From positions 12,004 through 76,003 of the forward strand of contig CALKJZ010000007.1 of assembly GCA_937995515.1 (NCBI GenBank): a DNA stretch of 64,000 nucleotides. The letters run 5' to 3'. The translations under genes were made by a program, and so were the position numbers. Source of the DNA: an uncultured Sphingomonadaceae bacterium. GTDB lineage: Bacteria; Pseudomonadota; Alphaproteobacteria; Sphingomonadales; Sphingomonadaceae. Below the pieces are notes generated by a model that was not told the DNA's origin, searched no databases, and saw only the letters and a program-made list of their open reading frames with translations. Every line of letters begins with the position of its first letter. Within the stretch, counting starts at the first letter, position 1. Below, in pieces: positions 26,305 to 45,083 of this stretch.

Positions 26305-26321
26305 GGCGGGCCTTCCTTCGC

Positions 26322-28070
26322 CTAGAAGCCGATCGTTGCGTTCACGAGAACGCGGTCGGGCGGGCGCGGGTTTCCAAGCGCGCCCTCGAACGGCCGCGCA
26401 TAGGCGATGTCGAGCACCAGCCGTCCGGGCAGCCGGGCGGTCACCCCCACGCCGCCGGAGGACAAGGTCTGCGAGAAGCCGCCGCGGTCCCGGTTCGAGA
26501 CATGGCCGACATCGAAGAAGCCATAGGGGCTGATGGCCACCCCCCGGCCGAGGGCAAAGGGGCCGAGCCGCGCATCGAAGGCAGCCAGCACCCCCTCGTC
26601 GCCAGCCACGATCGCCGGGTCGTAGCCACGCCCGACGCTGAGATTGCCGACCGTCAGCTCCTCGAAGGCCAGCAGCGGCCTCGAGGCGAGCTGCGCGGTG
26701 CCGCGCGCGGCGATGCCGAGCATGGCGCCAAGCGGCACTTCGGCGCGCGCGCCAAAGCGCGCCACGAAGGTGTCGGCCCGCCCGTCGAGCCGCGAGAGGA
26801 ACGGGTCTCCGGGGCGGCTTGCGCCAAGGCCCGAAAGCCCCTGGCGCAGCTGCACCTCGCCCCCCACCTGCCCGAGCCGCGGGCCGGCGCGAAAGCGGTG
26901 CAGGGCGGCCGCGCGCGCGAACAGCACGCGCAACTGGTCCTCGACGATCCGGCCGAAGCCGGGCCCGAGCGTGCGCTGCGAGACGATGTCGAGCCCGCCG
27001 GCGAGTTCGACCTCGGTCATCCGGGTCTTGACCAGCGGCCACGCCAGCTCGGCCGTGCCCACCACCGAGGTGGAGCGCAGGTTCAGGGGCTCGAGCAGGT
27101 CGCCCGGCCGCGTCTCGCCATAGGAGAGGCCGGCCGAGAGCCTGAGGCCGTCTCCACCGAGCCGCAGCGTCTCGCGGCCCTGCACCACGAACTGCTCGTT
27201 GTCGGGCAGCGTGCGATAGACGAGGAGCGTCGTCTGCTCTCCGAGCGCCGTCATGCCGTTGGCGTCAACCCGCGCAAGCGCTGCCCACCGGCCGGTCTGG
27301 CGGCTCTGCAGGTTCTGCACGTTCGCGACCGCCTGCAGCGGATCGCGCTCGACCAGCATCTCGATGTCGATCGCCCCCCTGCGGCCGGAGGCACCCGGCC
27401 GGATGACGGTGCGCAACCGGACGCCCGGAATCTCGGAGGCGAGCAGGAGCGCCCGCTGCGCCTGCCTCAGATCGAACGGGTTCATCCCGCGGATCTGCGC
27501 GGCATAACGGTCCACCTTGTGGGTGACCGGCCCGGCCACGCCGATCACGCGCACATTCTCCACCCGCGCCTCGATGATTTCCAGCTGCACCTGGCCATCG
27601 GCGATCCGCTGCTCGGGGATTTCCACGCGTGCCAGCCGGCCGGCGTTGAACAGGGCGGCCGCCGCCCTGTCGCGGATGGTGCACAGGGTCTCAAGCGGCA
27701 CCGTCTGCCCGAGATGTTCGCGGTAGCTTTCCTCGAGGATGGCAAGGAGGCGCGCCTCCGCGCGCGGGCTGGGTTCCGGGCGGCGGCCCGTGAAGCGCAC
27801 CGACTCGAGCCGGAAACTGAGGTCCGAGCCGCGGAACGGGCAGGGCGCAGGCACAGGCGGCTGGAAGAGGTCCGCCCGGTCTGCCGCGCGCGCGGTGCGG
27901 GCTGCAAGATCGAGCTCCTCGCGCGTGGGAAGCGGCGGCGCCGGGGCGGTCTGCGCGGCGGCAACAGCCGGCAGCAGCACGAGGCCGGCTGCCACTGCGA
28001 GGCTGCACGGCGCGGGCCGGGGCTGCGTCGGCCCGTCGCGAAAAGATCTGAACGCGTTGCGCGCGCGCAT
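26322..28070 (-). CDS. TpsB-type outer-membrane translocator (ShlB/FhaC/HecB family, Omp85 superfamily), 582 aa
   Basis: Starts at ATG 28070 (MRARNAFRSF...). It has a signal peptide (LAVAAGLVLLPAVAAAQT) and a POTRA-like region (VRFTGRR...QVQLEIIEARVENVRVIG). It also has the conserved loop-6 RGY motif (NLSVGRGYD) and a C-terminal ...VNATIGF. Its stop lies 17 nt upstream of the tpsA start. Confidence 0.9.
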   Translation of the reverse strand: MRARNAFRSFRDGPTQPRPAPCSLAVAAGLVLLPAVAAAQTAPAPPLPTREELDLAARTARAADRADLFQPPVPAPCPFRGSDLSFRLESVRFTGRRPEPSPRAEARLLAILEESYREHLGQTVPLETLCTIRDRAAAALFNAGRLARVEIPEQRIADGQVQLEIIEARVENVRVIGVAGPVTHKVDRYAAQIRGMNPFDLRQAQRALLLASEIPGVRLRTVIRPGASGRRGAIDIEMLVERDPLQAVANVQNLQSRQTGRWAALARVDANGMTALGEQTTLLVYRTLPDNEQFVVQGRETLRLGGDGLRLSAGLSYGETRPGDLLEPLNLRSTSVVGTAELAWPLVKTRMTEVELAGGLDIVSQRTLGPGFGRIVEDQLRVLFARAAALHRFRAGPRLGQVGGEVQLRQGLSGLGASRPGDPFLSRLDGRADTFVARFGARAEVPLGAMLGIAARGTAQLASRPLLAFEELTVGNLSVGRGYDPAIVAGDEGVLAAFDARLGPFALGRGVAISPYGFFDVGHVSNRDRGGFSQTLSSGGVGVTARLPGRLVLDIAYARPFEGALGNPRPPDRVLVNATIGF

Positions 28071-28259: not shown

Positions 28260-29657
28260 ATGACGGGCCAGCCGTCGGCATCTTTGCAGGTCAAACCCGG
28301 CCGGGCGTGCAGGTCGGCCGTCTCCGGCCTTCTGGCCTTCGTCGCGGCGGCGCTGGCCGCCGCACCTCTTCCGGCCCAGGTGCACGAGGGCGTGGCGAGC
28401 TGCGGTGGGGCCACCTGCCATGGCCGCCAGGCTGCGACGGGCGCCGCGGTGCGGCAGAACGAGCTTTCCACCTGGCAGGATCCGGCAAGCCCGGCCGGCG
28501 CCCACAGCCGCGCCTTCCGCGTGCTGCTTGCGCCCGAAAGCGCCCGCATGGCCCGCCGGCTGGCGCTCGGCGCGGCCGAAGAGGCGCCGATGTGCCTCTC
28601 GTGCCACAGCGATTATGTGCCCGCGGCGCGCCGCGGCGCCCGCTTCCGGCTGGAGGATGGGGTGGGCTGCGAGGCCTGCCATGGCGGCTCCGGCGCGCGG
28701 CCCGGTGGCGCCCCCGGCTGGCTCGCCAGCCACGCCGCAGTCGGCAACAGCCATGCCGCCAATGTGGCGGCCGGCCTGTTCCCGGCCACAGACCTCATCG
28801 CGCGCGCGAACATGTGCCTCGACTGCCATTTCGGCAGCATCCGGCCCGGCCAGTTCGTCACCCACCGGATCATGGCGGCCGGCCATCCGCGGCTTACCTT
28901 CGAGCTCGATCTGTTCACCGCGCTGCAGGCGCACCACGACGAGGATGCCGATTACCGGGCGCGCAAGCCTGCCCATGGGGCGCTCAAGGCCTGGGCGGTC
29001 GGGCAGGCGCTGGCCTCGGCGCGCCAGCTGCGGCTGTTCGCCCAGCGCGGAACCGATGGCGCGCTGCCCGAGTTCAGCTTCTTCGACTGCCGCACCTGCC
29101 ACCGCACCTTCACCGACCAGCGCGGGCTGAAGCCGCTGTCGCGCGCGGGCCAGTGGCGCCCGCTTCCGGCCGGATTTCCCGCCTTTGCCGACGAGAATCT
29201 GATCCTGCTCGATGCGGCCGCCCGGGTGCTCGCAGCGGCCGAGGCGGGCGAGGTGCGCCAGCGTTCGGCGGCCTTCCACCGCGCCTTTGCGGAAAGCCGC
29301 CCGGCGGCCGAGGCGGCGGCCCTTGCCCTCGCCGAGAGCGCGGAGCGGGTCGCCCGCCGGGTCGCCGGCGCCCGCCTCGAGCCCGGCGCTGCGCTGCGGA
29401 TCGTCGCGGCGATCACCGAGCCGCAGCACCTCCAGCGCGTCTCCGAGTACCAGGGCGGGGCGCAGACGCTGATGGCGGTCGAGACGCTGGTCTCGGCGGC
29501 CGTCAGTTCGGGCCTCGTGTCCGAGGCGCGGGCGCGGGGCCTCAGGCCCGCGCTCGACGAGGCGCACGCGCTCCTCAAGGATGCCAACCGCTGGGACGAG
29601 GAGGCCTTTGCCCGGGCCATGATCCGGCTTGGAGCCGCCGCCCGGACCATGCTGTGA
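28260..29657 (+). CDS. Periplasmic multiheme c-type cytochrome (4 CxxCH + 1 CxxxxCH-like site) with C-terminal helical domain, 465 aa
   Basis: ATG 28260 is preceded by AAGGAGG...GGGGGA. It has a signal peptide (LLAFVAAALAAAPLPAQV). Heme motifs: CLSCH, CEACH, CLDCH and CRTCH, plus CGGATCH. The C-terminal half is Ala-rich and helical. Confidence 0.8.
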   Translation: MTGQPSASLQVKPGRACRSAVSGLLAFVAAALAAAPLPAQVHEGVASCGGATCHGRQAATGAAVRQNELSTWQDPASPAGAHSRAFRVLLAPESARMARRLALGAAEEAPMCLSCHSDYVPAARRGARFRLEDGVGCEACHGGSGARPGGAPGWLASHAAVGNSHAANVAAGLFPATDLIARANMCLDCHFGSIRPGQFVTHRIMAAGHPRLTFELDLFTALQAHHDEDADYRARKPAHGALKAWAVGQALASARQLRLFAQRGTDGALPEFSFFDCRTCHRTFTDQRGLKPLSRAGQWRPLPAGFPAFADENLILLDAAARVLAAAEAGEVRQRSAAFHRAFAESRPAAEAAALALAESAERVARRVAGARLEPGAALRIVAAITEPQHLQRVSEYQGGAQTLMAVETLVSAAVSSGLVSEARARGLRPALDEAHALLKDANRWDEEAFARAMIRLGAAARTML

Positions 29658-31585
29658 TGCGGCCCGCCTTGCCTGCTGCCGTGCTGGCCCTGCTGCTTGC
29701 CGGATGCGGCGGCGGCAGCGGGGAGGGCTCGCCAGGCAAGCCGCCGGCCGCTGCCCCCGTGCCGCCGCCGCCGGCGCCCGGCCCCGCGCGCCTGTTCACG
29801 GACCCGGCGCCCGAGTTCCTGACCGAGACGGATGTGCGCCAGATCATCGCGCAGGCGGCAGGCGAGGCGCTGGCGCGCAACCTGCCCGTGGTGATTGCCG
29901 TGACCGACCGGGTGGGCAATGTCCTTGCCGTCTTCCGCATGGCCGGTGCGCGCGCGACGGCGCGGCTGCGCGATGGCCCGGGCGGCAACTTCGACGCCCA
30001 GGGGGTCGAGGTGCCTGCCGAGGCGGCCGCCATCGCCAAGGCGATCACGGGCGCCTATCTGTCGTCGGCTGGCAATGCCTTTTCCACCCGCACGGCGAGC
30101 ATGATCGTGCAGGAGCATTTTCCGCCTTCGGCCGTGGCCCGGGGGCTCGAATCCGGCCCGCTGTTCGGCGTGCAGTTCAGCCAGCTGCCCTGTTCGGACG
30201 TGGCCGCGCGCCTGCCGGGCACCGGGGTTGGGCCGAAACGCTCGCCGCTGGGGCTGGCTGCCGATCCGGGTGGCTTCCCGCTCTACAAGGCCGGCGTGCT
30301 CGTGGGCGGCATCGGCGTGATGGGCGATGGCGACTATGGCTTCGACCCGGAGGTGCGCGACATCGACACCGACGACGAGGAGCTGATCGCGCTGGCCGGC
30401 ACCTCGGGCTTTGCTGCCCCGCGCGAGATCGAGGCCGACCGCATCTCCGTCGATGGCACCACGCTGCGCTTCCGCGACCGGGGCACCGAGGCGCTGCGTT
30501 CCAGCCCGGCCTCGCCGCCGCCGTTCGCATCGCTTGCCGGCGCGCTCGTGGTGGTGCCGGGCTACAGCGATGGCAGCCTGCGCGCCGGCACGGCCTATGG
30601 CAGCGAGGCATCGGGCATCCGCCGCGCCCGTGCCGACGAGAGCGCCAACCCCGATCACTATGTGCTGAGCGACGGCACGGGCCTGCGGCGGTTCGAGCCG
30701 GCGCCGGCAAGCGATGGCGGCCTGACAGCCGCCGAGGTGCGGCGGCTGCTCGATTCCGCCTTCGAGGTGATGGCGCGTGCCCGCGCGCAGATCCGCCGCC
30801 CGCTCGAGAGCCGGGCCCAGGTCTCGATTGCGGTTGTCGATACCAATGGCCGGGTGCTGGGCCTCGTGCGCGCGCCCGATGCGCCGGTCTTCGGCATCGA
30901 CGTGGCCGTGCAGAAGGCGCGCTCGGCGATGTTCCTGTCGTCTGCCAGGGCCGCCTCCGAGCTCGGGGCGCACCCGAACCCGGCCGTGGCCGGCGTGGTG
31001 GCCGCCACCCGCACCTTCCTCGCCGATCCGCAGGCGCTCACCGGCCAGACGGCCATTTCGGCGCGGGCCATCGGCAACCTTGCCCGGCCCTTCTTCCCCG
31101 ATGGCGAGCTCGGCCGGCCCCCCGGGCCGTTCGGCCGGGCAATCGGCAGCTTTTCGCCCTTTGCCAACGGCCTGCAATCCGCGCTCGTCATCGGCGACAT
31201 CGCCGCCCATCTCGGCTTTCTCGCCGGCCAGAACCCCGACCCGCCGCCGGGCTGCGGCGGCCTGCCGCCCGCCGACGAAGGGCGCGGGCGGCTGGCCAAC
31301 GGGCTCCAGATCTTCCCCGGCGGGATCCCGCTCTATCGCCATGGGGTGCTGGTGGGCGGAATCGGCGTCTCCGGCGACGGGATCGACCAGGATGACATGG
31401 TGGCCTTCCTCGGCACCGACGGGGTCGCCGGCACGGGCGGCGTCGGCAACGCCGCCCCGGCAATCCGCTCGGACCGGGTGGAGGTGCCGCTCGCCGACGG
31501 CCGCCGCGTGCGGCTCCGCTGGATTGTCTGCCCCTTTGCGCCCTTCCTCGGCGATGCGGCGCAGAATGTGTGCGCGGGGCGGTGA
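29657..31585 (+). CDS. Lipoprotein with two GlcG/HbpS-like (DUF336) domains, 642 aa
   Basis: ATG 29657 overlaps the upstream TGA (TGATG). It has a lipobox (LLLAGCGG) and a Pro/Ala linker. Two DUF336-type cores are present: IIAQAAGEALARNLPVVIAVTDRVGNVLAVFRMAGA...AIAKAITGAYL and RAQVSIAVVDTNGRVLGLVRAPDAPVFGIDVAVQKARSAMFL. Confidence 0.75.
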   Translation: MRPALPAAVLALLLAGCGGGSGEGSPGKPPAAAPVPPPPAPGPARLFTDPAPEFLTETDVRQIIAQAAGEALARNLPVVIAVTDRVGNVLAVFRMAGARATARLRDGPGGNFDAQGVEVPAEAAAIAKAITGAYLSSAGNAFSTRTASMIVQEHFPPSAVARGLESGPLFGVQFSQLPCSDVAARLPGTGVGPKRSPLGLAADPGGFPLYKAGVLVGGIGVMGDGDYGFDPEVRDIDTDDEELIALAGTSGFAAPREIEADRISVDGTTLRFRDRGTEALRSSPASPPPFASLAGALVVVPGYSDGSLRAGTAYGSEASGIRRARADESANPDHYVLSDGTGLRRFEPAPASDGGLTAAEVRRLLDSAFEVMARARAQIRRPLESRAQVSIAVVDTNGRVLGLVRAPDAPVFGIDVAVQKARSAMFLSSARAASELGAHPNPAVAGVVAATRTFLADPQALTGQTAISARAIGNLARPFFPDGELGRPPGPFGRAIGSFSPFANGLQSALVIGDIAAHLGFLAGQNPDPPPGCGGLPPADEGRGRLANGLQIFPGGIPLYRHGVLVGGIGVSGDGIDQDDMVAFLGTDGVAGTGGVGNAAPAIRSDRVEVPLADGRRVRLRWIVCPFAPFLGDAAQNVCAGR

Positions 31586-33381
31586 GGCGCGCATTCCTCG
31601 CCCTGCTCCTCGCCCCGGCCGTGGCCGGGGCGCAGGAGGCGGAACGGCCGGAGGCCGGCCCGCCCATCGAGCGGCGCGTGCCCGGCATCCGCGCGGAGGT
31701 GGAAGCGCCGGTGCCGCCGACCGACAATCCAGGCGCCGTGCCACCGCCCGAGGCCTGGCCGGCCGACCATCTCCCCGTCCCCGACCGCTGGCGGATCCTC
31801 GACAGCCTCGAGGCGTGGAAAATCCCCTATTTCCGCGACGTGCTCGGGGTGCGGCGCGCGCGCACCCTCGACCCCTACAACCAGAACCTCCTGAAGGGCG
31901 ACAAGCCGCTTCCCGGCACGCAGGACTGGTTCCTCCTGCTTGCTGCGATCTCGGACACCGTCCTCGAGCCGCGCACCTTCCCCATTCCCGTCGGCATCCA
32001 GACCAGCGAGCGGCCAGACGAGCTCGACGTGTTCGGCGGCACGCGCTCCACCGTCGTTGCGCAGACCGTCATCCTTTCCGCCTCGTTGTTCCAGGGCTCC
32101 ACCCTGTTCAAGCCGGTGGAGCAGGAGCTGAAGGTCGCGCTGGCCTTCCAGTTCAACCATGTGACCGTGCCCGAGCGGCGGGTGCTGCTGGTCGAGCCGA
32201 GCCGCGGGCCGGAGCGCTCGGATGCCTTCGTCGGCGTGCAGGAATTGTTCTACGACCGGCACCTGCGCGATGTCTCCGACCGCTATGATTTCGATTCCGT
32301 CCGCATCGGGATCCAGCCGTTCACCGCCGATTTCCGCGGCTTCCTCTTCCAGGACACCCCGCTCGGCATCCGCCTGTTCGGCACCCGCGACGACAACCGC
32401 GTGCAATACAATCTCGCCGCCTTCGTGCGGCTGGAGAAGGACAGCAACACCGGCCTCAACGCCATCCTGCGCAGCCCACGGCAGGATTATGTGCTGGCAG
32501 CCAACCTCTACCGGCAGGATTTTCCGTGGCCCGCGCTCACCTCGCAGGTGGTCGTGCTGTGGAACATCAACCGCGAGGCCGACGATGTGCAGGTGGATAC
32601 CAACGGCTTTCCCGTCCGGCCCGCGCTCATCGGCAACCTGCGCGGGCGCGATTATGACGCCGTCTATCTTGGCTACAACGCCGACGGGCGGATCGGCCGC
32701 CTGAACCTGTCCGCCTCGGCCTATCTGCTGCTTGGCGAGGAGCGCAACAGCGTGTTCACCGGCGATCGGGCGAAGATCCGTGCCGCCTTCCTCGCCGCCG
32801 AGCCCTCGATCGATTCCAACTGGGTGCGCCTGCGCGGCAGCCTGCTGTTTGCAAGCGGCGATGGCAACCCGTTCGATTCCACCCATCAGGGCTTTGATGC
32901 CGTGTTCGAAAACCCGCTCTTTGCCGGGGCGGACACGAGCTTCTGGATCCGCCAGTCGATCCCCCTTGCCGGTGGCGGCCGGGTGATTGCCATCAATGGC
33001 CGCAACGGCATTCTGAACACGCTGCGCCCGTCGAAGGAGCAGGGCCAGTCCAGCTTCGTGAACCCGGGCACGATCCTCGTGGGCGCAGGCGCCGATTTCG
33101 ACGTTCTTCCGACGCTTCGCATTTCGGCCAATGCGAACCATCTGTGGTTCCACCGCACGGCGGTGCTGGAAACCCTGCGCCAGCAGGGCGGGCTTCAACC
33201 CGAGATCGGCTTTGATCTTTCTGCCGCGGCAATCTTCCGGCCGTTCATGCACCAGAATGTCGTGCTGCGCGGCTCGGCTGCGGTGCTGGTGCCGGGCCGT
33301 GGCTTCCGGCAGCTGTTCGTGGCCGAGAACCGCCGCCGGGCCTTCACATCGGTCCTCCTCAACCTCGTGCTGAGCTACTGA
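31570..33381 (+). CDS. Predicted outer-membrane beta-barrel protein (about 600 aa), family not recognised
   Basis: The start is GTG 31570 or GTG 31582; the latter overlaps the upstream stop as GTGA. It has a signal peptide (FLALLLAPAVAGAQE). Long stretches show alternating hydrophobic/polar strand patterns with Gly/Asn/Asp turns. The C-terminus is aromatic (...VLLNLVLSY). Confidence 0.6.
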   Translation: MRGAVRRAFLALLLAPAVAGAQEAERPEAGPPIERRVPGIRAEVEAPVPPTDNPGAVPPPEAWPADHLPVPDRWRILDSLEAWKIPYFRDVLGVRRARTLDPYNQNLLKGDKPLPGTQDWFLLLAAISDTVLEPRTFPIPVGIQTSERPDELDVFGGTRSTVVAQTVILSASLFQGSTLFKPVEQELKVALAFQFNHVTVPERRVLLVEPSRGPERSDAFVGVQELFYDRHLRDVSDRYDFDSVRIGIQPFTADFRGFLFQDTPLGIRLFGTRDDNRVQYNLAAFVRLEKDSNTGLNAILRSPRQDYVLAANLYRQDFPWPALTSQVVVLWNINREADDVQVDTNGFPVRPALIGNLRGRDYDAVYLGYNADGRIGRLNLSASAYLLLGEERNSVFTGDRAKIRAAFLAAEPSIDSNWVRLRGSLLFASGDGNPFDSTHQGFDAVFENPLFAGADTSFWIRQSIPLAGGGRVIAINGRNGILNTLRPSKEQGQSSFVNPGTILVGAGADFDVLPTLRISANANHLWFHRTAVLETLRQQGGLQPEIGFDLSAAAIFRPFMHQNVVLRGSAAVLVPGRGFRQLFVAENRRRAFTSVLLNLVLSY

Positions 33382-33383
33382 CG

Positions 33384-36300
33384 ATGCGCCGGGCGGCCTC
33401 CTTCCTTCTCCTGCTCCTGTGGATCTCGGCGCCCGCAGGCCTCCGGGCGGCAGGCGAGGAGCGGCCGGTTTCCCGCACCTACGTCTTCACCCCGCCCGCG
33501 CCCCGTTCCCAGACCTGGGCCGAGGCAGAGGCGAAATCCGCCGGCTGCGAGACCTGCCACACGGCGACCGACCACCGCACCATGCACGCTTCGCCGGCGG
33601 TCGTGCTCGGCTGCACCGATTGCCACGGCGGCGATGCCGGCGTGCGCGTGCCGCCCGGCACGGCGCCCGATGCGCCTGCCTACCGAGCGGCGCTTGCGCG
33701 CGCGCACGTGCTGCCGCGCTTTCCCAGGGCGTGGAACTGGCCCTCCTCGGCCAATCCGAAGCGGAGCTACGCGCTTCTCAACCGGGAAGCGCCGGAGTTC
33801 GTGCGGTTCGTCAACCCATCCGACTACCGGGCCGCGCGGGCGGCCTGCGGCGCCTGCCACCTCGCCGTGATCGAGGCGGCCGAGCGCTCGCTGATGGCAA
33901 CGGGCGCCATGCTCTGGGGCGGGGCAGCCTACAACAACGGCATCCTCCCGTTCAAGCGCACCCTCGTCGGGGAGGCCTACACGCCCGATGGCAGGCCGGC
34001 GCGCATCGTCTCGCCCGGGCCGGTCTCCGATGCGGCGCGGGCGCGCGGCGTGCTCGAGGCGCTCTATCCGCTGCCGACGTGGCATGTGACGGCGCCCGCC
34101 GACGTGTTCCGCGTGTTCGAGCGCGGGGGGCGCAACATTAACTCCAACTTCCCCGAAATCGGCATCCCCAACGTGCTGGGGCAGATCCAGCGGCTGGAGG
34201 AGCCGGGCCGGCCCGACATCCGGCAGTCGAACCGCGGGCCGGGCACGGGCCAGCGGGTCGCCATCCCGGTGCTCAACATCCACAAGACGCGCCTCAACGA
34301 TCCCTTTACCTGGTTCATGGGCACCAACGACCAGCCCGGAGACTATCGCCACTCCGGATGCGCCGCCTGCCATGTCGTCTATGCCAACGACCGGGAGCCG
34401 CGCCATTCCCTCACCTGGGCGCGCTACGGCCGCGACGGCGAGACGGCGACCGCCGACCCGACCATTCCGAGGGGCCGCAGCGGCCACCCGGTGCGCCATG
34501 CCTTCACACGCGCCATCCCCACCAGCCAGTGCATGAACTGCCACATGCACCAGCCCAACATCTTCCTGAACTCCTATCTCGGCTATACCATGTGGGATTA
34601 TGAGGTGGACGCGCCCGTCATGTGGCCGGAGCGGCAGGCCTATCCCGATGCGGCGGCGATGCGGAAGGTGCTCGACCGCAATCCGGAAGGCGCCTCGGTG
34701 CGCGGCCGGTGGGCAGACCTCGATTTCCTGCGCAATGTCTACGAGCTCAACCCCCAGCTCCGGCACACCCAGTTTGCCGACTATCACGGGCATGGCTGGA
34801 ACTTCCGCGCCATCCTGAAACGCGACCGCGAGGGCCATCTCCTCGATTCCGAGGGCAACCGGGTCGACCCGGGGGATCCGGAGCGCTGGCGGCGGGCGGG
34901 CGAGGGCCAGTTCGTGCCGCCCGGCATCAACCCGGGCAAGACGGTGCACATGATGGACATCCACGCCGAGGTGGGCATGCAGTGCGCCGACTGCCATTTC
35001 GCGCAGGACAGCCACGGCACCGGCAACATCCACGGCGAGGTGGCCGACGCCGTCGAGATCGCCTGCAGGGACTGCCACGGCACGGCCGATGCGCTGCCGA
35101 CGCTGCGCACCTCGAATGTCGCCGCCCGGCCGGGGGGCACCGATCTCAGCCTGTTGCGCAACCCCGACGGCCAGCGCCGGTTCGAGTGGACCATGGAGGG
35201 CGGCCGCCGCGTGCTGCTGCAGCGGTCGATCATCGATCCGGGCCTCGTCTGGCGGGTGAGCCTCGTGCGCGACTCGGTCGATCCAGCCTCGCCGGAGTTC
35301 AACCTGAAGGCCGCCCGTGCCAAGCTGATGGGCCGGACCGGTGCCGAGACCGGCCGCTTCCTGTTCGGCGCCGGCGTGCCGGCCGCCGAGCGGGCGCACC
35401 GCGACGATTCGATGACCTGCTACACCTGCCACCTCGCCTGGACGACGAGCTGCGGCGGCTGCCATCTTCCCATCGAGGCCAACTGGAAGACCGAGGTGCA
35501 CCGCTACGAGGGCAAGACCACGCGCAACTGGGCCAGCTACAACCCGCAGGTGGTGCGCGACGACATGTTCCAGCTCGGCCTGCACCAGACCAGCAAGGGC
35601 AACATCATCGCGCCCGTGCGCTCCTCCTCGGCGCTGGTGCTGACCTCGACCAACGCCAACCGCGAGCGCATCTACGTGCAGCAGCCGCCAATCTCGGCGA
35701 TCGGCTTTTCCTCCCAGGCCTTCGCCCCGCACTTCCCGCACACGGTCCGGAAAACCGAGACCAAGACCTGCACGGACTGCCACCTCTCGGCTGCCGACGA
35801 CAACAATGCCTGGATGGCGCAGCTGCTGCTGCAGGGCACCAACTTCGTGAACTTCATCGGCCTTTATGCCTACACGGGCGGCGAGGGCGGGCTTTCGGCG
35901 ATCCGCGTGACCGAGTTTTCCGAGCCGCAGGCCGTGCTCGGCTCCTACCTCCACCGCTATGCCTACCCGGACTACTGGCGCTGGTTTGTCGGGCAGCAGG
36001 GCCGCGAACTGAAGACCGCCCGCCGCGGCCGCGCGGTCATCGGGCGCTTTTCCAGTGCCACCGACAGCGCCGAGGAGTTCCGCAACATCCACAAGCAGAC
36101 GCAAGGCGCGGTCGGCTGTCTGCAGCACCGCGGCGAATATCTGTTCGTGGCCGAGGGCGCGGGCGGCTTGCGCGCCTATGACATCGCAAGCATTGCAAAC
36201 AAGGGCGTCTCGGAACCGATCCTGACTGGCCCCTTCTCGCGCCTCGGCCACCAGACGCACGTGCCCTCGCGCCATGCCACCTGCGTTGCGCTTCCCACCA

Positions 36301-37286
36301 ACCAGCCGATCGCGCCCTCCCGCAACACGCCCGAGATGCGCGCGCTGAACGCCGAGCAGCCGTTCCACCCGATCTATCACTATGCCGTCGTCACCGATGC
36401 CGAGGAGGGGCTCATCCTCGTCGATGTCGACACGCTCGCCGACCGCGAGCCGCGCAACAACAGGCTCCGCCGCGCGCTCACCTGGAACCCCGACGGCCTG
36501 CTCCGCGGCGCGCGCCACATCACCCTTGCGGGCTCCGTCGCCTATGTGGCGGCCGATGCCGGACTGGTGGTGGTCGACCTTGCGGACCCGCTCGCGCCGC
36601 GGGTTGCAGCACGCGTGCCGCTTCCCGGCCTGCGCGCCACCGCGCTCCAGTTCCGCTATCTCTTCGCCACCACCGCGCGCGGGCTCGAGGTGCTCGATGC
36701 GACAGACCTGCACCAGCCGGTGCCCGTGCCCGGCGCGCTGCTTCCGCTTGCCGATGCGCGCCGTGTCTATGTCGCGCGCACCTATGCCTATGTCGCCGCC
36801 GGCGCACAGGGGCTGGTGATTGCCAATGTCACCAACCCCGAACGGCCGCGGCTGCACAGGGCGGTCACCCTCGAGGGGGGCCTCGATGATGCCTCCGACG
36901 TGGTGGTGGCCTCCACCAATGCATCGCTCTTCGCCTATGTGGCCGACGGCCGCAACGGGCTGAAGGTGCTGCAGCTGACCTCGCCCGACAGCCAGCCGAA
37001 CTTCTACGGCTTCTCGCCCGCCCCCGTGCCCGAGCTCATCGCATTTGCACGCACGCCCTGGCCCCTGCGCGCCGTCTCCAAGGGGCTGGACCGCGACCGG
37101 GCGGTGGACGAGACGGGCGGGCAGATCGCCATCTTCGGCCGCTATGGTTCAAGGCCCTTCACCGCTGCCGAGATGCAGCGCTTCTACCGGAACCGGCAGG
37201 GCCTCGTGTGGAAGGTGCGCGACGAGGCCGACATGGCCGACTGGGTGGGCCCGCGCCCGCCGCTTCGGACGGCCGCTGCGCCCTAG
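33384..37286 (+). CDS. Secreted decaheme c-type cytochrome fused to a C-terminal LVIVD-repeat beta-propeller (1300 aa)
   Basis: The ATG lies 2 nt after the upstream stop, and a signal peptide is present (FLLLLLWISAPAGLRAAG). Ten CxxCH motifs span about 33540-35790: CETCH, CTDCH, CGACH, CAACH, CMNCH, CADCH, CRDCH, CYTCH, CGGCH, CTDCH. At least 6 LVIVD-like blades follow at about 36100-37050: GLRAYDIASIANKG, GLILVDVDTLADREP, GLVVVDLADPLAP, GLEVLDATDLHQP, GLVIANVTNPERP and GLKVLQLTSPDSQP. Confidence 0.85.
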   Translation: MRRAASFLLLLLWISAPAGLRAAGEERPVSRTYVFTPPAPRSQTWAEAEAKSAGCETCHTATDHRTMHASPAVVLGCTDCHGGDAGVRVPPGTAPDAPAYRAALARAHVLPRFPRAWNWPSSANPKRSYALLNREAPEFVRFVNPSDYRAARAACGACHLAVIEAAERSLMATGAMLWGGAAYNNGILPFKRTLVGEAYTPDGRPARIVSPGPVSDAARARGVLEALYPLPTWHVTAPADVFRVFERGGRNINSNFPEIGIPNVLGQIQRLEEPGRPDIRQSNRGPGTGQRVAIPVLNIHKTRLNDPFTWFMGTNDQPGDYRHSGCAACHVVYANDREPRHSLTWARYGRDGETATADPTIPRGRSGHPVRHAFTRAIPTSQCMNCHMHQPNIFLNSYLGYTMWDYEVDAPVMWPERQAYPDAAAMRKVLDRNPEGASVRGRWADLDFLRNVYELNPQLRHTQFADYHGHGWNFRAILKRDREGHLLDSEGNRVDPGDPERWRRAGEGQFVPPGINPGKTVHMMDIHAEVGMQCADCHFAQDSHGTGNIHGEVADAVEIACRDCHGTADALPTLRTSNVAARPGGTDLSLLRNPDGQRRFEWTMEGGRRVLLQRSIIDPGLVWRVSLVRDSVDPASPEFNLKAARAKLMGRTGAETGRFLFGAGVPAAERAHRDDSMTCYTCHLAWTTSCGGCHLPIEANWKTEVHRYEGKTTRNWASYNPQVVRDDMFQLGLHQTSKGNIIAPVRSSSALVLTSTNANRERIYVQQPPISAIGFSSQAFAPHFPHTVRKTETKTCTDCHLSAADDNNAWMAQLLLQGTNFVNFIGLYAYTGGEGGLSAIRVTEFSEPQAVLGSYLHRYAYPDYWRWFVGQQGRELKTARRGRAVIGRFSSATDSAEEFRNIHKQTQGAVGCLQHRGEYLFVAEGAGGLRAYDIASIANKGVSEPILTGPFSRLGHQTHVPSRHATCVALPTNQPIAPSRNTPEMRALNAEQPFHPIYHYAVVTDAEEGLILVDVDTLADREPRNNRLRRALTWNPDGLLRGARHITLAGSVAYVAADAGLVVVDLADPLAPRVAARVPLPGLRATALQFRYLFATTARGLEVLDATDLHQPVPVPGALLPLADARRVYVARTYAYVAAGAQGLVIANVTNPERPRLHRAVTLEGGLDDASDVVVASTNASLFAYVADGRNGLKVLQLTSPDSQPNFYGFSPAPVPELIAFARTPWPLRAVSKGLDRDRAVDETGGQIAIFGRYGSRPFTAAEMQRFYRNRQGLVWKVRDEADMADWVGPRPPLRTAAAP

Positions 37287-37568: not shown

Positions 37569-38924
37569 CTAGACGACGCCATAGGCGAGCATCGCATCGG
37601 CCACCTTCTTGAACCCGGCGATATTGGCCCCCTTCACATAGTCGACGTGGCCGTCGGCCTGGGTTCCCCAGCGCACGCAGCGGTCGTGGATGCCTTTCAT
37701 GATGTCCTTCAGCAGCGTCTGCAGCTGCTCTTCCGTCCAGCTGATCCGCGCCGAGTTCTGGCTCATCTCCAGGCCCGAGACGGCCACGCCGCCGGCATTG
37801 GCCGCCTTGCCGGGCGCGAACAGCACGCGTGCGGCCTTCAGATAGTGGGTGGCCTCGAGCGTCGTTGGCATGTTCGCACCCTCGACGACCGCCACCACGC
37901 CATTGGCCACCAGCCGGCGTGCATCCTCCTCGTCAAGCTCGTTCTGGGTTGCACACGCAAGCGCCACGTCGCAGGCCACGCCCCAGGGCCGCGCCCCGGG
38001 GTGGTAGGTCGCGCCGGCGAACCGCTCGGCATATTCGGCGATCCGCCCGCGCCGCCGCGTCTTCAGATCCTTCACCCAGTCGATCTTTTCCTGGTCGAGC
38101 CCTTGCGGGTCGTGGATGAAGCCGTCGGAATCCGAAAGCGTGACTGGCCGGGCGCCCAGCATCACGAGCTTTTCCGCCGCGTGGATCGCCACATTGCCCG
38201 AGCCGGAGATGGCGCACACCAGCCCCTCCACCCCGCGCCCCTGGTGCGCCAGCATGTTCTCGAGGAAGTGGACGGCGCCATAGCCGGTCGCCTCGGTGCG
38301 GATGAGCGAGCCGCCGAACTCCAGCCCCTTGCCGGTGAGCACGCCGGTGAAATGGTTGGTGATCCGCTTGTACTGGCCGAACATGTAGCCGATTTCGCGC
38401 GCGCCCACGCCAATGTCGCCGGCAGGCACGTCCACATCGGCGCCGACGTGGCGGTAGAGCTCGGTCATGAAGCTCTGGCAGAAGCGCATCACCTCGCGGT
38501 CGGACTTGCCGCGCGGGTTGAAGTTCGCGCCACCCTTGCCGCCGCCCATCGGCAGCCCGGTGAGCGCATTCTTGAAGGTCTGTTCAAAGGCCAGGAACTT
38601 CAGCACGGATTCGGTGACCGACGGGTGGAAGCGCAGCCCGCCCTTGTAGGGGCCGATGGCATTGTTGTTCTGCACCCGCCAGCCGCGCTGGACGCGGATG
38701 TCGCCCTTGTCGTCTTCCCAACAGACCCGGAAGGAGACCACCCGGTCGGGCTCGGCAATCCGCCTGAGGATCTGCTCGGAATGATACTCCTCGTGGGACT
38801 CGAAGAAGTCGTAGATGTCTTCTGCCACTTCCTGCACGGCCTGCACGAACTCCGGTTGGCCCGGGTTGCGCCGCCTCACGCCCTCCATGAAGCCGGCAAG
38901 ATCCACATGCTCGCCTCGCGCCAT
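37569..38924 (-). CDS. gdhA: NADP-specific glutamate dehydrogenase
   Basis: Starts at ATG 38924 (MARGEHVDLAGFMEGVRRRNPGQPEFVQAVQEV...), preceded by GGAGA. Signatures: GPYKGGLRFHP, GLPMGGGKGG and CAISGSGNVA. 451 aa. Confidence 0.95.
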   Translation of the reverse strand: MARGEHVDLAGFMEGVRRRNPGQPEFVQAVQEVAEDIYDFFESHEEYHSEQILRRIAEPDRVVSFRVCWEDDKGDIRVQRGWRVQNNNAIGPYKGGLRFHPSVTESVLKFLAFEQTFKNALTGLPMGGGKGGANFNPRGKSDREVMRFCQSFMTELYRHVGADVDVPAGDIGVGAREIGYMFGQYKRITNHFTGVLTGKGLEFGGSLIRTEATGYGAVHFLENMLAHQGRGVEGLVCAISGSGNVAIHAAEKLVMLGARPVTLSDSDGFIHDPQGLDQEKIDWVKDLKTRRRGRIAEYAERFAGATYHPGARPWGVACDVALACATQNELDEEDARRLVANGVVAVVEGANMPTTLEATHYLKAARVLFAPGKAANAGGVAVSGLEMSQNSARISWTEEQLQTLLKDIMKGIHDRCVRWGTQADGHVDYVKGANIAGFKKVADAMLAYGVV

Positions 38925-39053
38925 CGCCTGTCTCCCCATCTCCCCGACGGTGGCACAATAGCTGCAAAAGGGCCGGCTGAACATGCCCGGTGCTTGTGCG
39001 GATGCTCCGGGGCCGCCACACATGGCGCAGGCACGGATGATGAGGGCAAGGCC

Positions 39054-40580
39054 ATGGCGGTTCGGGCGCGCGGGATCCTGGGGATGGTGCTGGCAGCAGC
39101 GGTGGTGGTGGCCGCATCCGCGCCGGCCGCGGCGGCGGAAGCGGCAGCGCCCCTGCCGGCGGCCGCGCTCGGCGAGATCCGCCAGCTGTTCGACGACTGG
39201 AAGCGCGACGCGCGCGCGCCGGGCCTGGTCTGGGGGGTCGTGCAGGGCGGCCGTCTCGTGGCGCTCGGGGCCGATGGCATCGCTGACGTGCGCACGGGCC
39301 GGCCCGTGACGGCCGACACCGCCTTCCGCATCGCCTCGATGAGCAAGGCGTTCACCGCGCTTGCCATCCTGATGGAGCGCGACGCCGGGCGGCTGCGGCT
39401 CGACGATCCGGCCCAGGCCCATGTGCCCGAGATGCGCAGCTGGCCGCCGGCGACCCCGGACAGCCCGCCGATCACCGTGCGCGATCTCCTGCACCACACC
39501 TCTGGCCATGTGACCGACAACCCCTGGGGCGATCGCCAGCAGGCCATGCCGGAGGCCGAATTTTCGGCCTATCTCGAAAAGGGGTTCCCGCGGTCGCGGG
39601 CCACGGGCACGGCCTATGAATATTCGAATGTCGGCTATGCGACCCTCGGGCGGATCGTGCAGAACAGCGCCGGCCGGGATTTCGCGCTCCATGTCGGCGA
39701 AACGCTGCTGAAGCCGCTCGGCATGGCCTCCACCACCTACGAGGTGCGAGCCGTGCCCAGAGACCGGCTGGCCCGCGGCTATCGCTGGCAGGATGCGCGC
39801 TGGGTTGAGGAGCCGGAAATGCCGCACGGCGCCTTTGGCGCCATGGGGGGGCTTGTGACAACGGCGAACGACTATGCGCGCTGGATCGCCTTCCTGCTGT
39901 CCGGATGGCCCGCAGGCGAGGTGCGCAAGACCGGGCCGGTCAGGGCCTCGACCCTGCGCGAGATGATGCAGGGCAACGGGTTTCCGGAATCGCGCCCCCG
40001 GCCGGGCCGCACGGCCGCGACCGGCTGCCGGCTGGCTGCCGTCTATGGCATGGGCCTTCGCGTTGCGCAGGATTGCGACCTCGGGCTCACCCTGTCGCAC
40101 GGCGGCGGCTATCCCGGCTATGGCTCGTTCATGCTCCTGCTGCCCGGGGCAGGGGTCGGCATCTTCGCCTTCTCCAACCGCACCTATGGCGCGCCGGCCG
40201 GGCCGGTCTGGGATGCAGCGCTCGTGCTGTTCCGCCACGGCCTGCTGAAGCCAGAGCCCATCCCCGTCTCGCCCATGCTCGCCGGCGCCTATGCGGCGGT
40301 TGCGCGCGTGTGGGCGCGTGCCGACATCGAGGCGGCCGGGCCGGAGCTTGCTATGAACATGCTGCTCGACAAGCCGGCGCGCATCTGGCGTGCGGAGCTG
40401 CAGGCGATGAAGGCCGATGCCGGGGCCTGCGACACCTCGGCGCCGATCCGGCCGACGGGTGCCCTTTCGGGCACATTCCTGTGGCGCTGCGCGACCGGGC
40501 GGATCACGGGCGAGCTGCTGCTCTCGCCCGAGGCAAGGCCCCGCATCCAGGAGCTTCGCCTCCGGCCCATGGCGCCCTGA
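39054..40580 (+). CDS. Secreted serine hydrolase (beta-lactamase / PBP4*-like family)
   Basis: Starts at ATG 39054 and has a signal peptide (GMVLAAAVVVAASAPAAAA). It carries an SxxK motif (IASMSKAFTA) and a YxN motif (YEYSNVGY). Confidence 0.85.
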   Translation: MAVRARGILGMVLAAAVVVAASAPAAAAEAAAPLPAAALGEIRQLFDDWKRDARAPGLVWGVVQGGRLVALGADGIADVRTGRPVTADTAFRIASMSKAFTALAILMERDAGRLRLDDPAQAHVPEMRSWPPATPDSPPITVRDLLHHTSGHVTDNPWGDRQQAMPEAEFSAYLEKGFPRSRATGTAYEYSNVGYATLGRIVQNSAGRDFALHVGETLLKPLGMASTTYEVRAVPRDRLARGYRWQDARWVEEPEMPHGAFGAMGGLVTTANDYARWIAFLLSGWPAGEVRKTGPVRASTLREMMQGNGFPESRPRPGRTAATGCRLAAVYGMGLRVAQDCDLGLTLSHGGGYPGYGSFMLLLPGAGVGIFAFSNRTYGAPAGPVWDAALVLFRHGLLKPEPIPVSPMLAGAYAAVARVWARADIEAAGPELAMNMLLDKPARIWRAELQAMKADAGACDTSAPIRPTGALSGTFLWRCATGRITGELLLSPEARPRIQELRLRPMAP

Positions 40581-40620
40581 CGGGGCGGCGCCCATTGCGC
40601 GAGCGGGGCTGCAATCCGAC

Positions 40621-42090
40621 ATGGGGCTGATGAGGACCGACCCTCTCGCCCCGGCCGGCCCGGGCTTTGCGTTCGACAACAGCTATGCGCGCCTGCCGGA
40701 AGGCCTCTATGCGCGCGTGGCGCCCACGCACGTCCGGGCGCCGCGCCTCGTGCTTCTGAACGAGGCGCTTGCCCACGCACTCGGCCTCGATGCCGACTGG
40801 CTTGCCTCTCCCGAAGGCGTGGCCGTGCTTGCCGGCAATGCGCCGGCACCGGGCGGGGCGCCGATCGCCCAGGCCTATGCCGGGCACCAGTTCGGCCACT
40901 TTGCCATGCTGGGCGACGGCCGCGCGCACCTTCTTGGCGAACAGATCGCCCCCGATGGCCGCCGCTTCGACATCCATCTGAAGGGCTCGGGCCAGACCCC
41001 CTTCTCGCGCAGCGGCGACGGGCGGGCGGCCCTCGGGCCGATGCTGCGCGAATATCTGGTCTCGGAGGCCATGCACGCGCTCGGCATTCCGACCACGCGC
41101 AGCCTTGCCGTGATTGCCACCGGCGAGCCGGTGCTGCGCGACGCTGTCCTGCCGGGCGCCATCCTGGTCAGGGTTGCCGCCTCGCATATTCGGGTGGGCA
41201 CCTTCCAGTTCGCGCGCGCAACCGGCCAGCGGCCCCTTCTTGAGGCCCTGCTGTCCCACGCGATTGCCCGCCACGACCCGGAGCTTGCCGGCGCCGCCCG
41301 GCCGGCGCTTGCCTTCCTCGAGGCAGTGATGGCGCGCCAGGCGGCTCTGGTTGCGCGCTGGATGGCGGTCGGCTTCGTCCACGGCGTGATGAACACCGAC
41401 AACATGGCCGTCTCCGGCGAGACGATCGACTACGGACCGTGCGCCTTCATCGACCGCTTCGACCCGGCGACCGTCTTTTCCTCGATCGATCGCGGCGGCC
41501 GCTATGCCTATGCCAACCAGCCGCGGATCGCGCACTGGAACCTCGCGCGGCTGGCCGAAGCCCTGCTGCCGCTTGTCGACCCCAACGAGGCGCGCGCGGT
41601 CGAGCTGGCAACAGAGGCGATCCACCGTTTCCCAGCGCTGTTCGAAGCCGAATGGCTGGCCCTGTTCCGCGCCAAGCTTGGGCTTGCCGGCGCCGAGGCG
41701 GAAGACCGGCTGCTTGCCGAGGATTTTCTGGCGGGCCTGCACGCGGGCGGGCTGGATTTCACGGCCTCGTTTGCCGAACTGGCCCGCGGCCGGCCGCCCG
41801 CGCATCCGGCGCTCGCAGACTGGGTCGGGCGCTGGGAGGCGCGGCTTTCGCGTGCGCAAGAGCCGCGCGCTGCGGCGCTGCAGCGGATGCAGGCGGCAAG
41901 CCCGGCGGTGATCCCGCGCAACCATGCCGTGGAGGCGGCGCTTGCAGCGGCCGCCGCGGGCGATCTCGCGCCGGCGCACAGGCTCCTTGCCGCGCTCGCA
42001 AGGCCCCACGACCACGAGGGCGCTGACCCAGCACTTGCGGCTGCGCCGCCCGCGCCCGCCCAGCCCTACCGCACCTTCTGCGGCACCTGA
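40621..42090 (+). CDS. selO: Protein adenylyltransferase SelO (YdiU family)
   Basis: Starts at ATG 40621. Signatures: FDNSYARLPE, AQAYAGHQFGHFAMLGDGRAHLLGE, HLKGSGQTPFSR, LREYLVSEAMHALGIPTTRSLAV, VRVAASHIRVGTFQ and HGVMNTDNMAVSGETIDYGPCAF. Confidence 0.9.
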   Translation: MGLMRTDPLAPAGPGFAFDNSYARLPEGLYARVAPTHVRAPRLVLLNEALAHALGLDADWLASPEGVAVLAGNAPAPGGAPIAQAYAGHQFGHFAMLGDGRAHLLGEQIAPDGRRFDIHLKGSGQTPFSRSGDGRAALGPMLREYLVSEAMHALGIPTTRSLAVIATGEPVLRDAVLPGAILVRVAASHIRVGTFQFARATGQRPLLEALLSHAIARHDPELAGAARPALAFLEAVMARQAALVARWMAVGFVHGVMNTDNMAVSGETIDYGPCAFIDRFDPATVFSSIDRGGRYAYANQPRIAHWNLARLAEALLPLVDPNEARAVELATEAIHRFPALFEAEWLALFRAKLGLAGAEAEDRLLAEDFLAGLHAGGLDFTASFAELARGRPPAHPALADWVGRWEARLSRAQEPRAAALQRMQAASPAVIPRNHAVEAALAAAAAGDLAPAHRLLAALARPHDHEGADPALAAAPPAPAQPYRTFCGT

Positions 42091-45079: not shown

Positions 45080-45083
45080 GGGC

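Follow-up and report, generated by a model that had tools for sequence, protein, structure and literature searches.

A conserved barrel and decahaem–propeller gene cluster of Sphingomonadaceae as part of a seven-gene envelope redox system

What kind of machine is encoded by four adjoining genes that specify two secreted multihaem cytochromes, a lipoprotein and an outer-membrane barrel in an uncultured Sphingomonadaceae bacterium? These genes, designated here g1 to g4, occupy positions 28260–37286 of a 64,000-nucleotide stretch (contig CALKJZ010000007.1 of assembly GCA_937995515.1, positions 12,004 to 76,003 of the forward strand), the whole of which is called the window below; its DNA is high in GC (~0.67–0.75), and the closest named relative judged by g4 is Thermaurantiacus tibetensis with 87% identity. 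To our knowledge the trans-envelope multihaem systems were worked out mainly in metal-respiring or iron-oxidising specialists, and all those characterised are linked to the quinone pool and possess large MtrB-like barrels. The original prediction, made from the DNA letters alone, recognised in g1–g4 the logic of a porin-cytochrome conduit, possibly of an undescribed type. The present analysis places the four genes in a conserved seven-gene unit with an AlgE-like rather than an MtrB-like barrel; tentatively, and with slightly less than even confidence, g1–g4 are regarded as the distal half of an electron-export chain fed by NAD(P)H, gated by cyclic nucleotide monophosphates (cNMP) and ending at a periplasmic g4 protein.

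All four genes are read from the plus strand. The first, g1 (28260–29657), encodes a c554-like secreted cytochrome of 465 amino acids (aa), and g2 (29657–31585) encodes a 642-aa lipoprotein with two GlcG/HbpS-like halves. The outer-membrane β-barrel gene g3 extends over 31582–33381 (599 aa) or 31570–33381 (603 aa), depending on which of two candidate GTG start codons, 31570 or 31582, is used; the NCBI model of an identical protein has 599 aa, i.e., it begins at 31582, and this start gives a GTGA overlap with the g2 stop codon. Then g4 (33384–37286) encodes a 1300-aa decahaem protein with an LVIVD β-propeller. The g1/g2 junction is a TGATG overlap (29655–29659), g3 and g4 are separated by a 2-nt gap, a Shine-Dalgarno sequence AAGGAGG is located upstream of the g1 ATG, and no terminator-like sites were detected on the plus strand inside the block. 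The near-zero spacing described in the original prediction was reproduced in every coordinate and overlap, and the products showed the features expected of them: four CxxCH and one Cx4CH site in the 465-aa g1 product, the lipobox LLAGC, an HbpS-like match and an internal repeat in the two-domain g2 lipoprotein, an aromatic terminus (...LVLSY) and an 18-strand model for g3, which speaks against a non-barrel protein, and ten CxxCH in the 1300-aa g4 product. The proposed signal peptides on all four proteins were called by eye, without a predictor; they stand at this level, while the g1 N-terminus could instead be an uncleaved anchor.

Conserved gene order had been named beforehand as a test of the cluster, and it was examined by tblastn of the window proteins against 82 loci. 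Immediately before g4 stood g3 in 70 of 72 loci from other genomes, and g2 lay upstream of g3 in 63 of 65. Together with the conserved motif counts described below this makes the four-gene arrangement far beyond chance. What did not hold is the view of the four genes as the whole system, since the functional unit comprises seven genes: three further ones, here called the input genes, lie at 2355–7476 of the window, ~21 kb from g1–g4, and encode a flavo-iron-sulfur (flavo-FeS) protein, a transmembrane (TM) protein and an anchored FHA-decahaem cytochrome. All seven genes were found within ±10 kb in 27 of the 39 loci with full flanks. They form a single block in Rhodospirillaceae, Gamma- and Betaproteobacteria and Acidobacteriota, while in Sphingomonadales two modules abut. 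The distant lineages have either the order flavo-FeS, TM, FHA-decahaem, g2, g3, g4, g1 or the order TM, FHA-decahaem, g2, g3, g4, g1, flavo-FeS, so that g1 follows g4 there rather than preceding g2. Downstream of the four genes Sphingobium YBL2 and Erythrobacter THAF29 carry genes for a metallophosphoesterase, a ~600-aa FHA-like multihaem protein, a ~290-aa membrane protein, a ~800-aa Pyr_redox/cNMP-binding/4Fe-4S protein and a CcmH/CycH-like TPR protein; all these neighbour genes are also present in the window, displaced upstream of g1–g4. Both modules are translationally coupled through TGATG or GTGA overlaps.

The family is widespread. When one genome per species was scanned, g4 relatives were found in at least 584 genomes, which belong to Alphaproteobacteria (Sphingomonadales, Caulobacterales, Rhodospirillaceae, Elsteraceae), Gammaproteobacteria (Fontimonas, Oceanococcus, Haliea, Arenimonas, Lysobacterales), Betaproteobacteria (Limnobacter, Burkholderiales) and Acidobacteriota, and in aerobic Sphingomonadales the system is near the core gene set. 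Very divergent g4 genes (37–40% identity) are still preceded directly by a g3-like barrel gene (26–28% identity), and in one divergent locus genes for the TM protein and the anchored cytochrome are kept, as is a cNMP-binding gene, with neither g1 nor g2. Because the g3-g4 adjacency is kept in such remote relatives, the barrel and the decahaem-propeller protein are the invariant core; g2 is missing from the divergent variants L084 and L085. The g3-g4 pair of L085 (site 7889–9466) stands beside a Ser/Thr protein kinase gene with a PEGA domain and that of L084 (site 18553–18843) beside a cNMP-binding gene and DUF4127, a hint that control by cNMP and by phospho-threonine/FHA reaches remote relatives as well. 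No member of the g1–g4 family carries a functional name: on the Sphingobium herbicidovorans replicon pMSHV the NCBI annotation pipeline PGAP names the same cluster "cytochrome c family protein" (g1), "heme-binding protein" (g2), "hypothetical protein" (g3) and "multiheme c-type cytochrome" (g4).

The barrel bears most directly on whether a sheathed cytochrome wire is encoded here. The g3 protein has an AxA-type signal peptide and no cysteine, and the window copy gave no Pfam or NCBIfam match and no PDB sequence match. Its AlphaFold2 model, built with 34 homologues, contains 18 strands within residues 116–598 with a mean pLDDT (predicted local distance difference test) of 61.7, the strands being mostly at 70–87. 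Two conserved segments remain unmodelled: ~95 aa past the signal peptide (to residue ~115), predicted to be unstructured, and 72 aa between strands 13 and 14, which topology places on the extracellular side. In the Foldseek comparison with the PDB the 17 best matches were all AlgE (E 1.4e-14 to 1.7e-12), the next ones were chitoporins, Occ/OprD and other 16–18-strand porins, and the 50 matches listed include no MtrB. The conserved face of the amphipathic strands is the polar, lumen-facing one, with 9 Arg, 7 Asp and 2 Glu at ≥90% conservation; the protein as a whole is unusually conserved for a porin (63% mean column identity, 205 invariant positions), and only one histidine is invariant.

According to the model, we conclude that g3 is a genuine outer-membrane barrel of the small specific-channel type and not a wide Mtr-type sheath, and that a multihaem protein would probably not fit inside it. 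The 18 strands and AlgE as the best structural match make a cytochrome-in-barrel wire unlikely, and, having no cysteine and only one invariant histidine, g3 cannot itself carry a cofactor. The likeness to AlgE (PDB 3rbh, 4afk and other entries) includes the strand number, the charged conserved lumen and a TM-score (template modelling score) of ~0.6–0.66 normalised to AlgE; however, the sequence identity is ~10%, the ~95-aa conserved N-terminal region and the 72-aa conserved loop are extra, and there are no alginate or polysaccharide biosynthesis genes nearby. The Pfam family Alginate_exp (PF13372) was matched weakly in 6 of the 34 g3 homologues (best E 2.8e-4), and the conserved neighbours of g3 include neither alg nor other export genes. 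An anion-selective lumen, electropositive as in AlgE, is not claimed, the conserved lumen charges being balanced (9 Arg versus 9 Asp/Glu).

The partner of the barrel, g4, consists of a haem domain (~1–810) and a C-terminal LVIVD β-propeller (~820–1300), with Pfam matches to LVIVD (53 bits), to Cytochrome_C7 and to c7/c3 motifs. More than 7200 homologues were found, with 59–87% best-segment identity in the genome loci, and the search of a representative library gave 889 clusters at E<1e-30. Ten CxxCH are present in 77 of 82 orthologues, and homologues down to 41% identity keep ten CxxCH together with eleven further invariant or near-invariant histidines, while the propeller has no conserved cysteine or histidine. 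Since eleven non-motif histidines are enough for bis-His ligation of ten haems, the sequence pattern points to a wire or capacitor that also has a binding domain, and away from a catalytic haem or metal centre. The g4 protein of the window has no lipobox, and a lipobox was found in only 1 of the 120 closest homologues. Sequence and homologue-profile searches of the PDB with g4 gave nothing significant, NrfA-family matches appearing only at E 0.2, and HAO, ONR, OTR, MccA, NrfA and MtrC were rejected as families at the sequence level by PDB searches with the four proteins. No fold was assigned to the haem domain, because the AlphaFold2 model from a 27-sequence alignment reached a pLDDT of 51 and a predicted TM-score of 0.36, and its best Foldseek match (E 1.9) is meaningless. 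Many short "relatives" of g4 turned out to be frameshifted assemblies and were discarded, and apparent homologues with the haem domain only, possibly PtdA-like (see below), were set aside on the same ground. One distant homologue, P0254 (1648 aa, 28 CxxCH), carries an N-terminal extension with ~18 extra haems on the decahaem-propeller scaffold.

The remaining two proteins of the block are of unlike conservation pattern. In g1 the CxxCH motifs are at residues 112, 137, 186 and 277 and the motif CGGATCH is at 48; four CxxCH plus one Cx3-4CH are kept in 53 of 53 orthologues, and H82, H158, H202, H209, H225 and H340 are conserved candidates for distal ligands. The protein matches Pfam Cytochrome_C554 (38.6 bits) and Cytochrome_C7, the PDB sequence search gave no match, and it is probably a periplasmic electron shuttle. 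In g2 the lipobox, with Gly at +2, is accompanied by a Pro-rich linker of ~40 aa, the HbpS-like family (PF03928) is matched in 3 stretches with 80 bits (cut-off 25), and the two halves align to each other at E 6e-12 and share the GlcG C-terminal signature. Its PDB relatives belong to the GlcG family only, namely EfgA (E 2e-9), the PduO-like protein 5cx7 (E 2e-6) and NahX. Among the 138 residues that are ≥95% conserved there are 4 Cys and no His. Haem binding, which had been carried over to g2 from the GlcG/HbpS family, is therefore not to be assumed and is doubtful.

The input genes form a module of their own on the minus strand. The flavo-FeS protein (5014–7476, −; 820 aa) has no signal peptide and is predicted to be cytoplasmic, combining an NAD(P)H-linked flavin adenine dinucleotide (FAD) domain with two cNMP-binding domains and a ferredoxin domain; it matches the Pfam families Pyr_redox_2, cNMP_binding (in 2 stretches) and Fer4, and the NCBIfam models YpdA (112 bits) and CRP-like. 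Its TrxR/YpdA-like domain has no CxxC, and the DmsB/HybA-like ferredoxin domain has four groups of four cysteines. The TM protein (4151–5017, −; 288 aa, 5 TM segments, inner membrane) is a candidate dihaem-b electron carrier, in which H103/H117 of TM3 and H267/H281 of TM5 are ≥95% conserved, the members of each pair standing 14 residues apart (H-x13-H). Such a spacing is classical for two stacked b-haems in cytochrome b and NOX-type proteins. The anchored cytochrome (2355–4154, −; 599 aa) has an N-terminal cytoplasmic FHA domain, a single TM segment at 140–168 and a periplasmic decahaem c domain; it matches Cytochrome_C7, Paired_CXXCH_1, Cytochrom_c3_2 and Yop-YscD_cpl/FHA, and ten CxxCH are kept in 49 of 49 orthologues. 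The three genes are joined by two GTGA overlaps, by which the TM protein gene is linked to both neighbours. For the seven proteins together the predicted cofactors are one FAD, four [4Fe-4S] clusters, two b-type and 25 c-type haems (~27 haems).

Genes for making and removing the presumed signal recur beside the system in Alpha- and Betaproteobacteria. In the window they are a CHASE2 adenylate/guanylate cyclase gene (14413–16704, +; Pfam CHASE2 183 and Guanylate_cyc 79 bits; start codon uncertain) and a gene of a phosphodiesterase-like metallophosphoesterase (16830–17681, +), whose NCBIfam scores, SpdA 151 and CpdA 79 bits, are both below the cut-offs. Of the 82 loci, 37 have the metallophosphoesterase gene, which as a rule stands between g4 and the gene of the FHA-decahaem cytochrome, and cyclase orthologues adjoin the system in ~11 loci (including L004, L014, L019, L020, L025, L036, L040, L041, L067 and L074) with 54–60% identity in Alphaproteobacteria and 34–35% in Limnobacter. 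Head-to-head with the cyclase gene stands a pair of minus-strand genes for a FecR-domain protein (11976–12887) and a TPR plus Slam/DUF560-like outer-membrane protein (12884–~14200), the latter with only sub-threshold Pfam matches; the pair possibly serves as a sensor module from which the cNMP gate is fed. Cytochrome c maturation is represented by CcmF (7727–9727, +), which was recognised by reading the translation and has CcmF-like counterparts in other loci, and by a CcmI/CycH-like TPR protein (TPR_CcmH_CycH; 10712–11953, +) whose gene is linked to the system throughout Sphingomonadales; it was found in 28 of 82 loci and stands next to the system in L001 and L002. Their position beside the flavo-FeS gene fits the heavy c-haem demand of the system. 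In all-against-all clustering of the neighbouring open reading frames (ORFs) only the CcmI-like TPR gene recurs widely, the rest being lineage-specific metabolic genes, and the conserved genes of the loci did not include one for a quinol dehydrogenase.

Gene content, motifs, conservation, gene order and the fold class of the barrel are shown by the analysis; from domain content and topology entirely, we infer an electron path together with its cofactor occupancy, its direction, the location of g4 and the acceptor. NAD(P)H would be oxidised in the cytoplasm at the FAD domain of the 820-aa protein, and the electrons would pass via the four [4Fe-4S] clusters to the dihaem-b TM protein and across the inner membrane to the anchored FHA-decahaem cytochrome, from which the soluble pentahaem g1 would shuttle them over the periplasm to the decahaem domain of g4, where they would end. 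An 18-strand barrel lacking cofactor ligands cannot conduct and is unlikely to hold a haem domain; for this reason g4 is placed in the periplasm, against the outer membrane, with its propeller possibly docked on the g3 barrel and/or on the tethered lipoprotein g2. In this arrangement g3 would act as an AlgE-like 18-strand channel or dock with a charged lumen that admits an oxidant or releases a product, not as a cytochrome sheath, and g2 would be a likely ligand-binding or catalytic partner. Gating may be exerted by cNMP on the two cNMP domains, supplied by the CHASE2 cyclase and removed by the phosphodiesterase, and the FHA domain may add phospho-threonine signalling. A role in iron acquisition is unlikely, because the system itself needs ~27 haems and 16 FeS irons.

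How far do known systems anticipate such a chain? The components had been proposed to be equivalent to none of the Mtr, Pio or Pcc proteins, and this was borne out for Mtr, Pio/Mto and the Geobacter Pcc/Ext proteins by NCBIfam scores far below the cut-offs: the DmsE/MtrA family TIGR03508 gave 17 versus 192 bits (g1), HmcA 20 versus 400, ExtM 74 versus 800 (g4), and ExtN and ExtO ~24 versus 200. Homology to a characterised enzyme system was likewise not found in the PDB sequence and profile searches. With MtrCAB, MtoAB and PioAB the operon shares the joining of an outer-membrane barrel, a periplasmic multihaem protein and a large decahaem protein, all of them secreted; however, in comparison with MtrCAB the barrel is an 18-strand AlgE-like one instead of the 26-strand MtrB, there is no decahaem protein of the MtrA/DmsE family (g1 has 5 haem sites), g4 has no lipobox and no MtrC/MtrF domain match at E<=0.01, and electrons would enter from NAD(P)H by way of the flavo-FeS protein and the b-type TM protein instead of a CymA/NapC quinol dehydrogenase. 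The likeness to the Geobacter Ext/Pcc systems is a weak c3-type similarity of g4 to ExtM, ExtN and HmcA, at about one tenth of the cut-offs, whereas homologues of ExtI, OmbB or a rhodanese-like protein are missing from the seven-gene system. The TM protein with the anchored multihaem cytochrome resembles a split version of CbcL, in which a dihaem-b HydC/FdnI-like domain and a multihaem c domain are joined in one protein, but CbcL is quinol-linked and has no cytoplasmic flavo-FeS partner.

The one described counterpart that was found is ptdABCDEFG, a putative porin-cytochrome cluster of Alphaproteobacteria from oxygen-deficient zones, reported from marine and saline organisms and described bioinformatically, the function of which "remains completely unknown" according to its authors (10.1101/2023.11.21.568154). 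It encodes PtdA, a pentahaem protein with a β-sandwich (related to the NrfA-family COG3303), the porin PtdB, the FAD/NAD(P) oxidoreductase PtdC, the tetrahaem PtdD, the cNMP-binding PtdE with 4Fe-4S, the ferric-reductase-like TM protein PtdF and the decahaem PtdG (10.1101/2023.11.21.568154). The likeness rests by architecture only on the cNMP/4Fe-4S protein, the FAD/NAD(P) oxidoreductase function and the porin, and by CxxCH count only on the periplasmic decahaem protein and on the "tetrahaem" PtdD, to which g1 with 4 CxxCH and 1 Cx4CH may correspond; Ptd also occurs in aerobic Alpha- and Gammaproteobacteria and other phyla. The differences are that the distal component of Ptd is the pentahaem PtdA, whereas here it is the decahaem g4 with an LVIVD propeller next to the barrel, that Ptd has no GlcG/HbpS lipoprotein, that FAD and cNMP/FeS are on separate Ptd genes and fused here in the 820-aa protein, and that the g4 family is dominated by Sphingomonadales and Caulobacterales. 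The TM protein, a possible counterpart of PtdF, has 5 TM segments with two conserved H-x13-H pairs, no Pfam Ferric_reduct match and only a sub-threshold Ni_hydr_CYTB match. The claim of an undescribed type stands in so far as the system is uncharacterised, but a similar cluster had already been named in a preprint. Searches of the literature for LVIVD together with cytochromes, for multihaem proteins in Sphingomonadales and for DUF336/HbpS together with multihaem proteins found no description of the present cluster, no link of LVIVD with a g4-type cytochrome and no further work on ptd, and in a plasmid tblastn aimed at Ptd clusters only secondary replicons of Sphingobium matched.

Three other explanations of the same genes have to be weighed against the periplasmic export chain. 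The one closest to the original prediction is a true porin-cytochrome conduit, in which a haem segment of g1, g4 or the anchored decahaem protein would sit inside g3 and a surface-exposed g4 would pass electrons to Fe(III)/Mn(IV) oxides, to humics or to O2, giving superoxide; it is considered unlikely. The cluster indeed joins a barrel, a periplasmic multihaem protein and a large multihaem cytochrome, and this part of the porin-cytochrome logic, a conserved envelope redox system with an outer-membrane barrel, stood, while the barrel is predicted not to be MtrB-like and g4 lacks a lipobox. The invariant g3-g4 adjacency, the conserved g3 loop between strands 13 and 14 with its predicted extracellular position, the LVIVD repeats, which are linked to cell-surface proteins as cited in a preprint, and the distant g4 homologues with lipoboxes or, in one case, 28 haem motifs are consistent with a conduit, and the authors of Ptd interpret their similar cluster as a porin-cytochrome complex (10.1101/2023.11.21.568154). 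Against it are the 18-strand AlgE-like g3 fold, for which the 50 listed matches of Foldseek do not include MtrB, the inability of g3 to carry a cofactor itself with no Cys and one invariant His, the fact that 119 of the 120 closest homologues of g4 have no lipobox, the failure of any member to reach a Mtr, DmsE or Ext model cut-off and the lack of secretion genes for a 140-kDa haem protein in the conserved neighbourhood. Some points also speak against the export chain ending in the periplasm, which relies on sequence and predicted structure and for which the gene context yields no candidate substrate. The g3 model is of moderate confidence (mean pLDDT 61.7), and its ~170 unmodelled conserved residues could add strands. 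Besides, the Geobacter Pcc barrels are predicted at only ~20 strands, so that a strand number of 18 does not settle the question of size. Being extracellular by topology, the strictly conserved 72-aa loop fits a surface-docked g4 as well, and a lipobox is present in 4 of 16 distant g4 homologues, as in surface cytochromes. Finally, the TM protein matches the cytochrome b561/FdnI family (Ni_hydr_CYTB) only below the cut-off (E 0.003), and this family binds quinones, which leaves room for quinol input or for output to the quinone pool.

The last point leads to a chain running inwards, in which g4, possibly with g2, would oxidise Fe(II), Mn(II), reduced sulfur or organics and the electrons would go through the b-type membrane protein to the quinone pool or through the flavo-FeS protein to NAD(P)+. 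The weak resemblance of the TM protein to the quinone-reactive FdnI/cytochrome b561 family is in line with it, c554-type cytochromes accept electrons from oxidising enzymes, TrxR-type ferredoxin:NADP+ reductases are reversible, and aerobic hosts, as far as taxa allow to judge, offer a terminal oxidase as a sink. Nevertheless NAD(P)+ could be reduced only with a donor of very low potential or with an input of energy, and the system has no energy-coupling subunit; entry into the quinone pool would leave the strictly conserved NAD(P)H/FAD/FeS protein without a role; the hosts look heterotrophic rather than lithotrophic, judged by organism names; and no catalytic, non-bis-His haem is indicated in g4, which together make the inward direction quite improbable. 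Hardly better placed is periplasmic stress defence or repair of the MsrPQ/Fre kind, where a signal would drive detoxification of peroxide, hypohalite, tellurite, selenite or chromate or the repair of envelope components, with g2 as a sensor or active site. Part of the literature places HbpS-family proteins in haem- or iron-linked oxidative-stress sensing, the design appears signal-gated (cNMP, FHA, cyclase, phosphodiesterase), the system is near-core in aerobic Sphingomonadales, and g4 is weakly similar (74 bits) to ExtM of a selenite/tellurite-reduction operon. But the ExtM score is a tenth of the cut-off, 25 c-haems exceed the redox capacity of known repair systems, a stress-response regulator and a known detoxifying enzyme domain are both missing, and g2 has no conserved His; this role is accordingly thought improbable.

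A more specific form of the export chain would make it a counterpart of NADPH oxidases and ferric reductases, by which strictly aerobic heterotrophs such as Sphingomonadales and Caulobacterales, on a cAMP or cGMP signal, export NAD(P)H electrons over ~27 haems to the outer membrane, where they would reduce O2 to superoxide, Fe(III)/Mn(III,IV) or humics outside the cell; this is a rather remote prospect. With NOX/FRE and MsrQ/Fre proteins it would share the route from NAD(P)H through flavin and two stacked b-haems on two TM helices to an outside acceptor, from which it differs by the four interposed FeS clusters, the 25 c-haems beyond and the cNMP and FHA gating. If it were true, it would mean widespread quinone-independent extracellular electron transfer in organisms not regarded as electroactive, with an AlgE-type barrel used as in no known conduit.

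The interest of the system lies in its unlike wiring, namely the predicted NAD(P)H link through a flavo-FeS protein and a candidate dihaem-b carrier, the cNMP-binding and FHA domains on the electron carriers themselves and the pairing of a decahaem-propeller protein with a small AlgE-like barrel, and in its hosts, which are mostly ordinary aerobic heterotrophs of soil, freshwater and sea. A known function would give a role to ~12 kb of the near-core Sphingomonadales genome and could bear on extracellular superoxide, on metal and metalloid reduction and on the survival of aerobes without oxygen. Several hosts (Sphingomonas, Sphingobium, Novosphingobium and relatives of Caulobacter) are believed to be genetically tractable, so that the function could be tested directly.

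Other genes of the window were also inspected. Between the two modules a two-partner-secretion pair lies on the minus strand, consisting of a 3115-aa repeat-rich exoprotein ORF (17695–27042) and a ShlB/FhaC transporter gene (~26322–28070; Pfam ShlB) divergent from g1, and in Sphingobium YBL2 and S. herbicidovorans g1 is likewise flanked by large exoprotein genes, one of them with a ShlB gene. Two-partner secretion was rejected as a part of the system, the exoprotein cluster being present in only ~5 of 82 loci, a few Sphingobium ones. Downstream of g4 (37569–42090) there is a minus-strand glutamate dehydrogenase gene, an ELFV_dehydrog gene being linked in many Sphingomonadales loci as well, followed by genes for a putative beta-lactamase-family serine hydrolase and a SelO/YdiU-like protein, both read from translations; all three look unconnected with the system. 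The region 42000–48200 has an AT skew of +0.27 to +0.30 and lower GC and carries minus-strand Mrp/Mnh-type cation:proton antiporter genes (Proton_antipo_M, MnhB, MbhD/E), the skew being determined by the coding composition of membrane proteins and not being an anomaly. The sole Rfam match in the window at the gathering threshold is a serC leader RNA (RF00517, 53 bits) at 59714–59766 on the minus strand.

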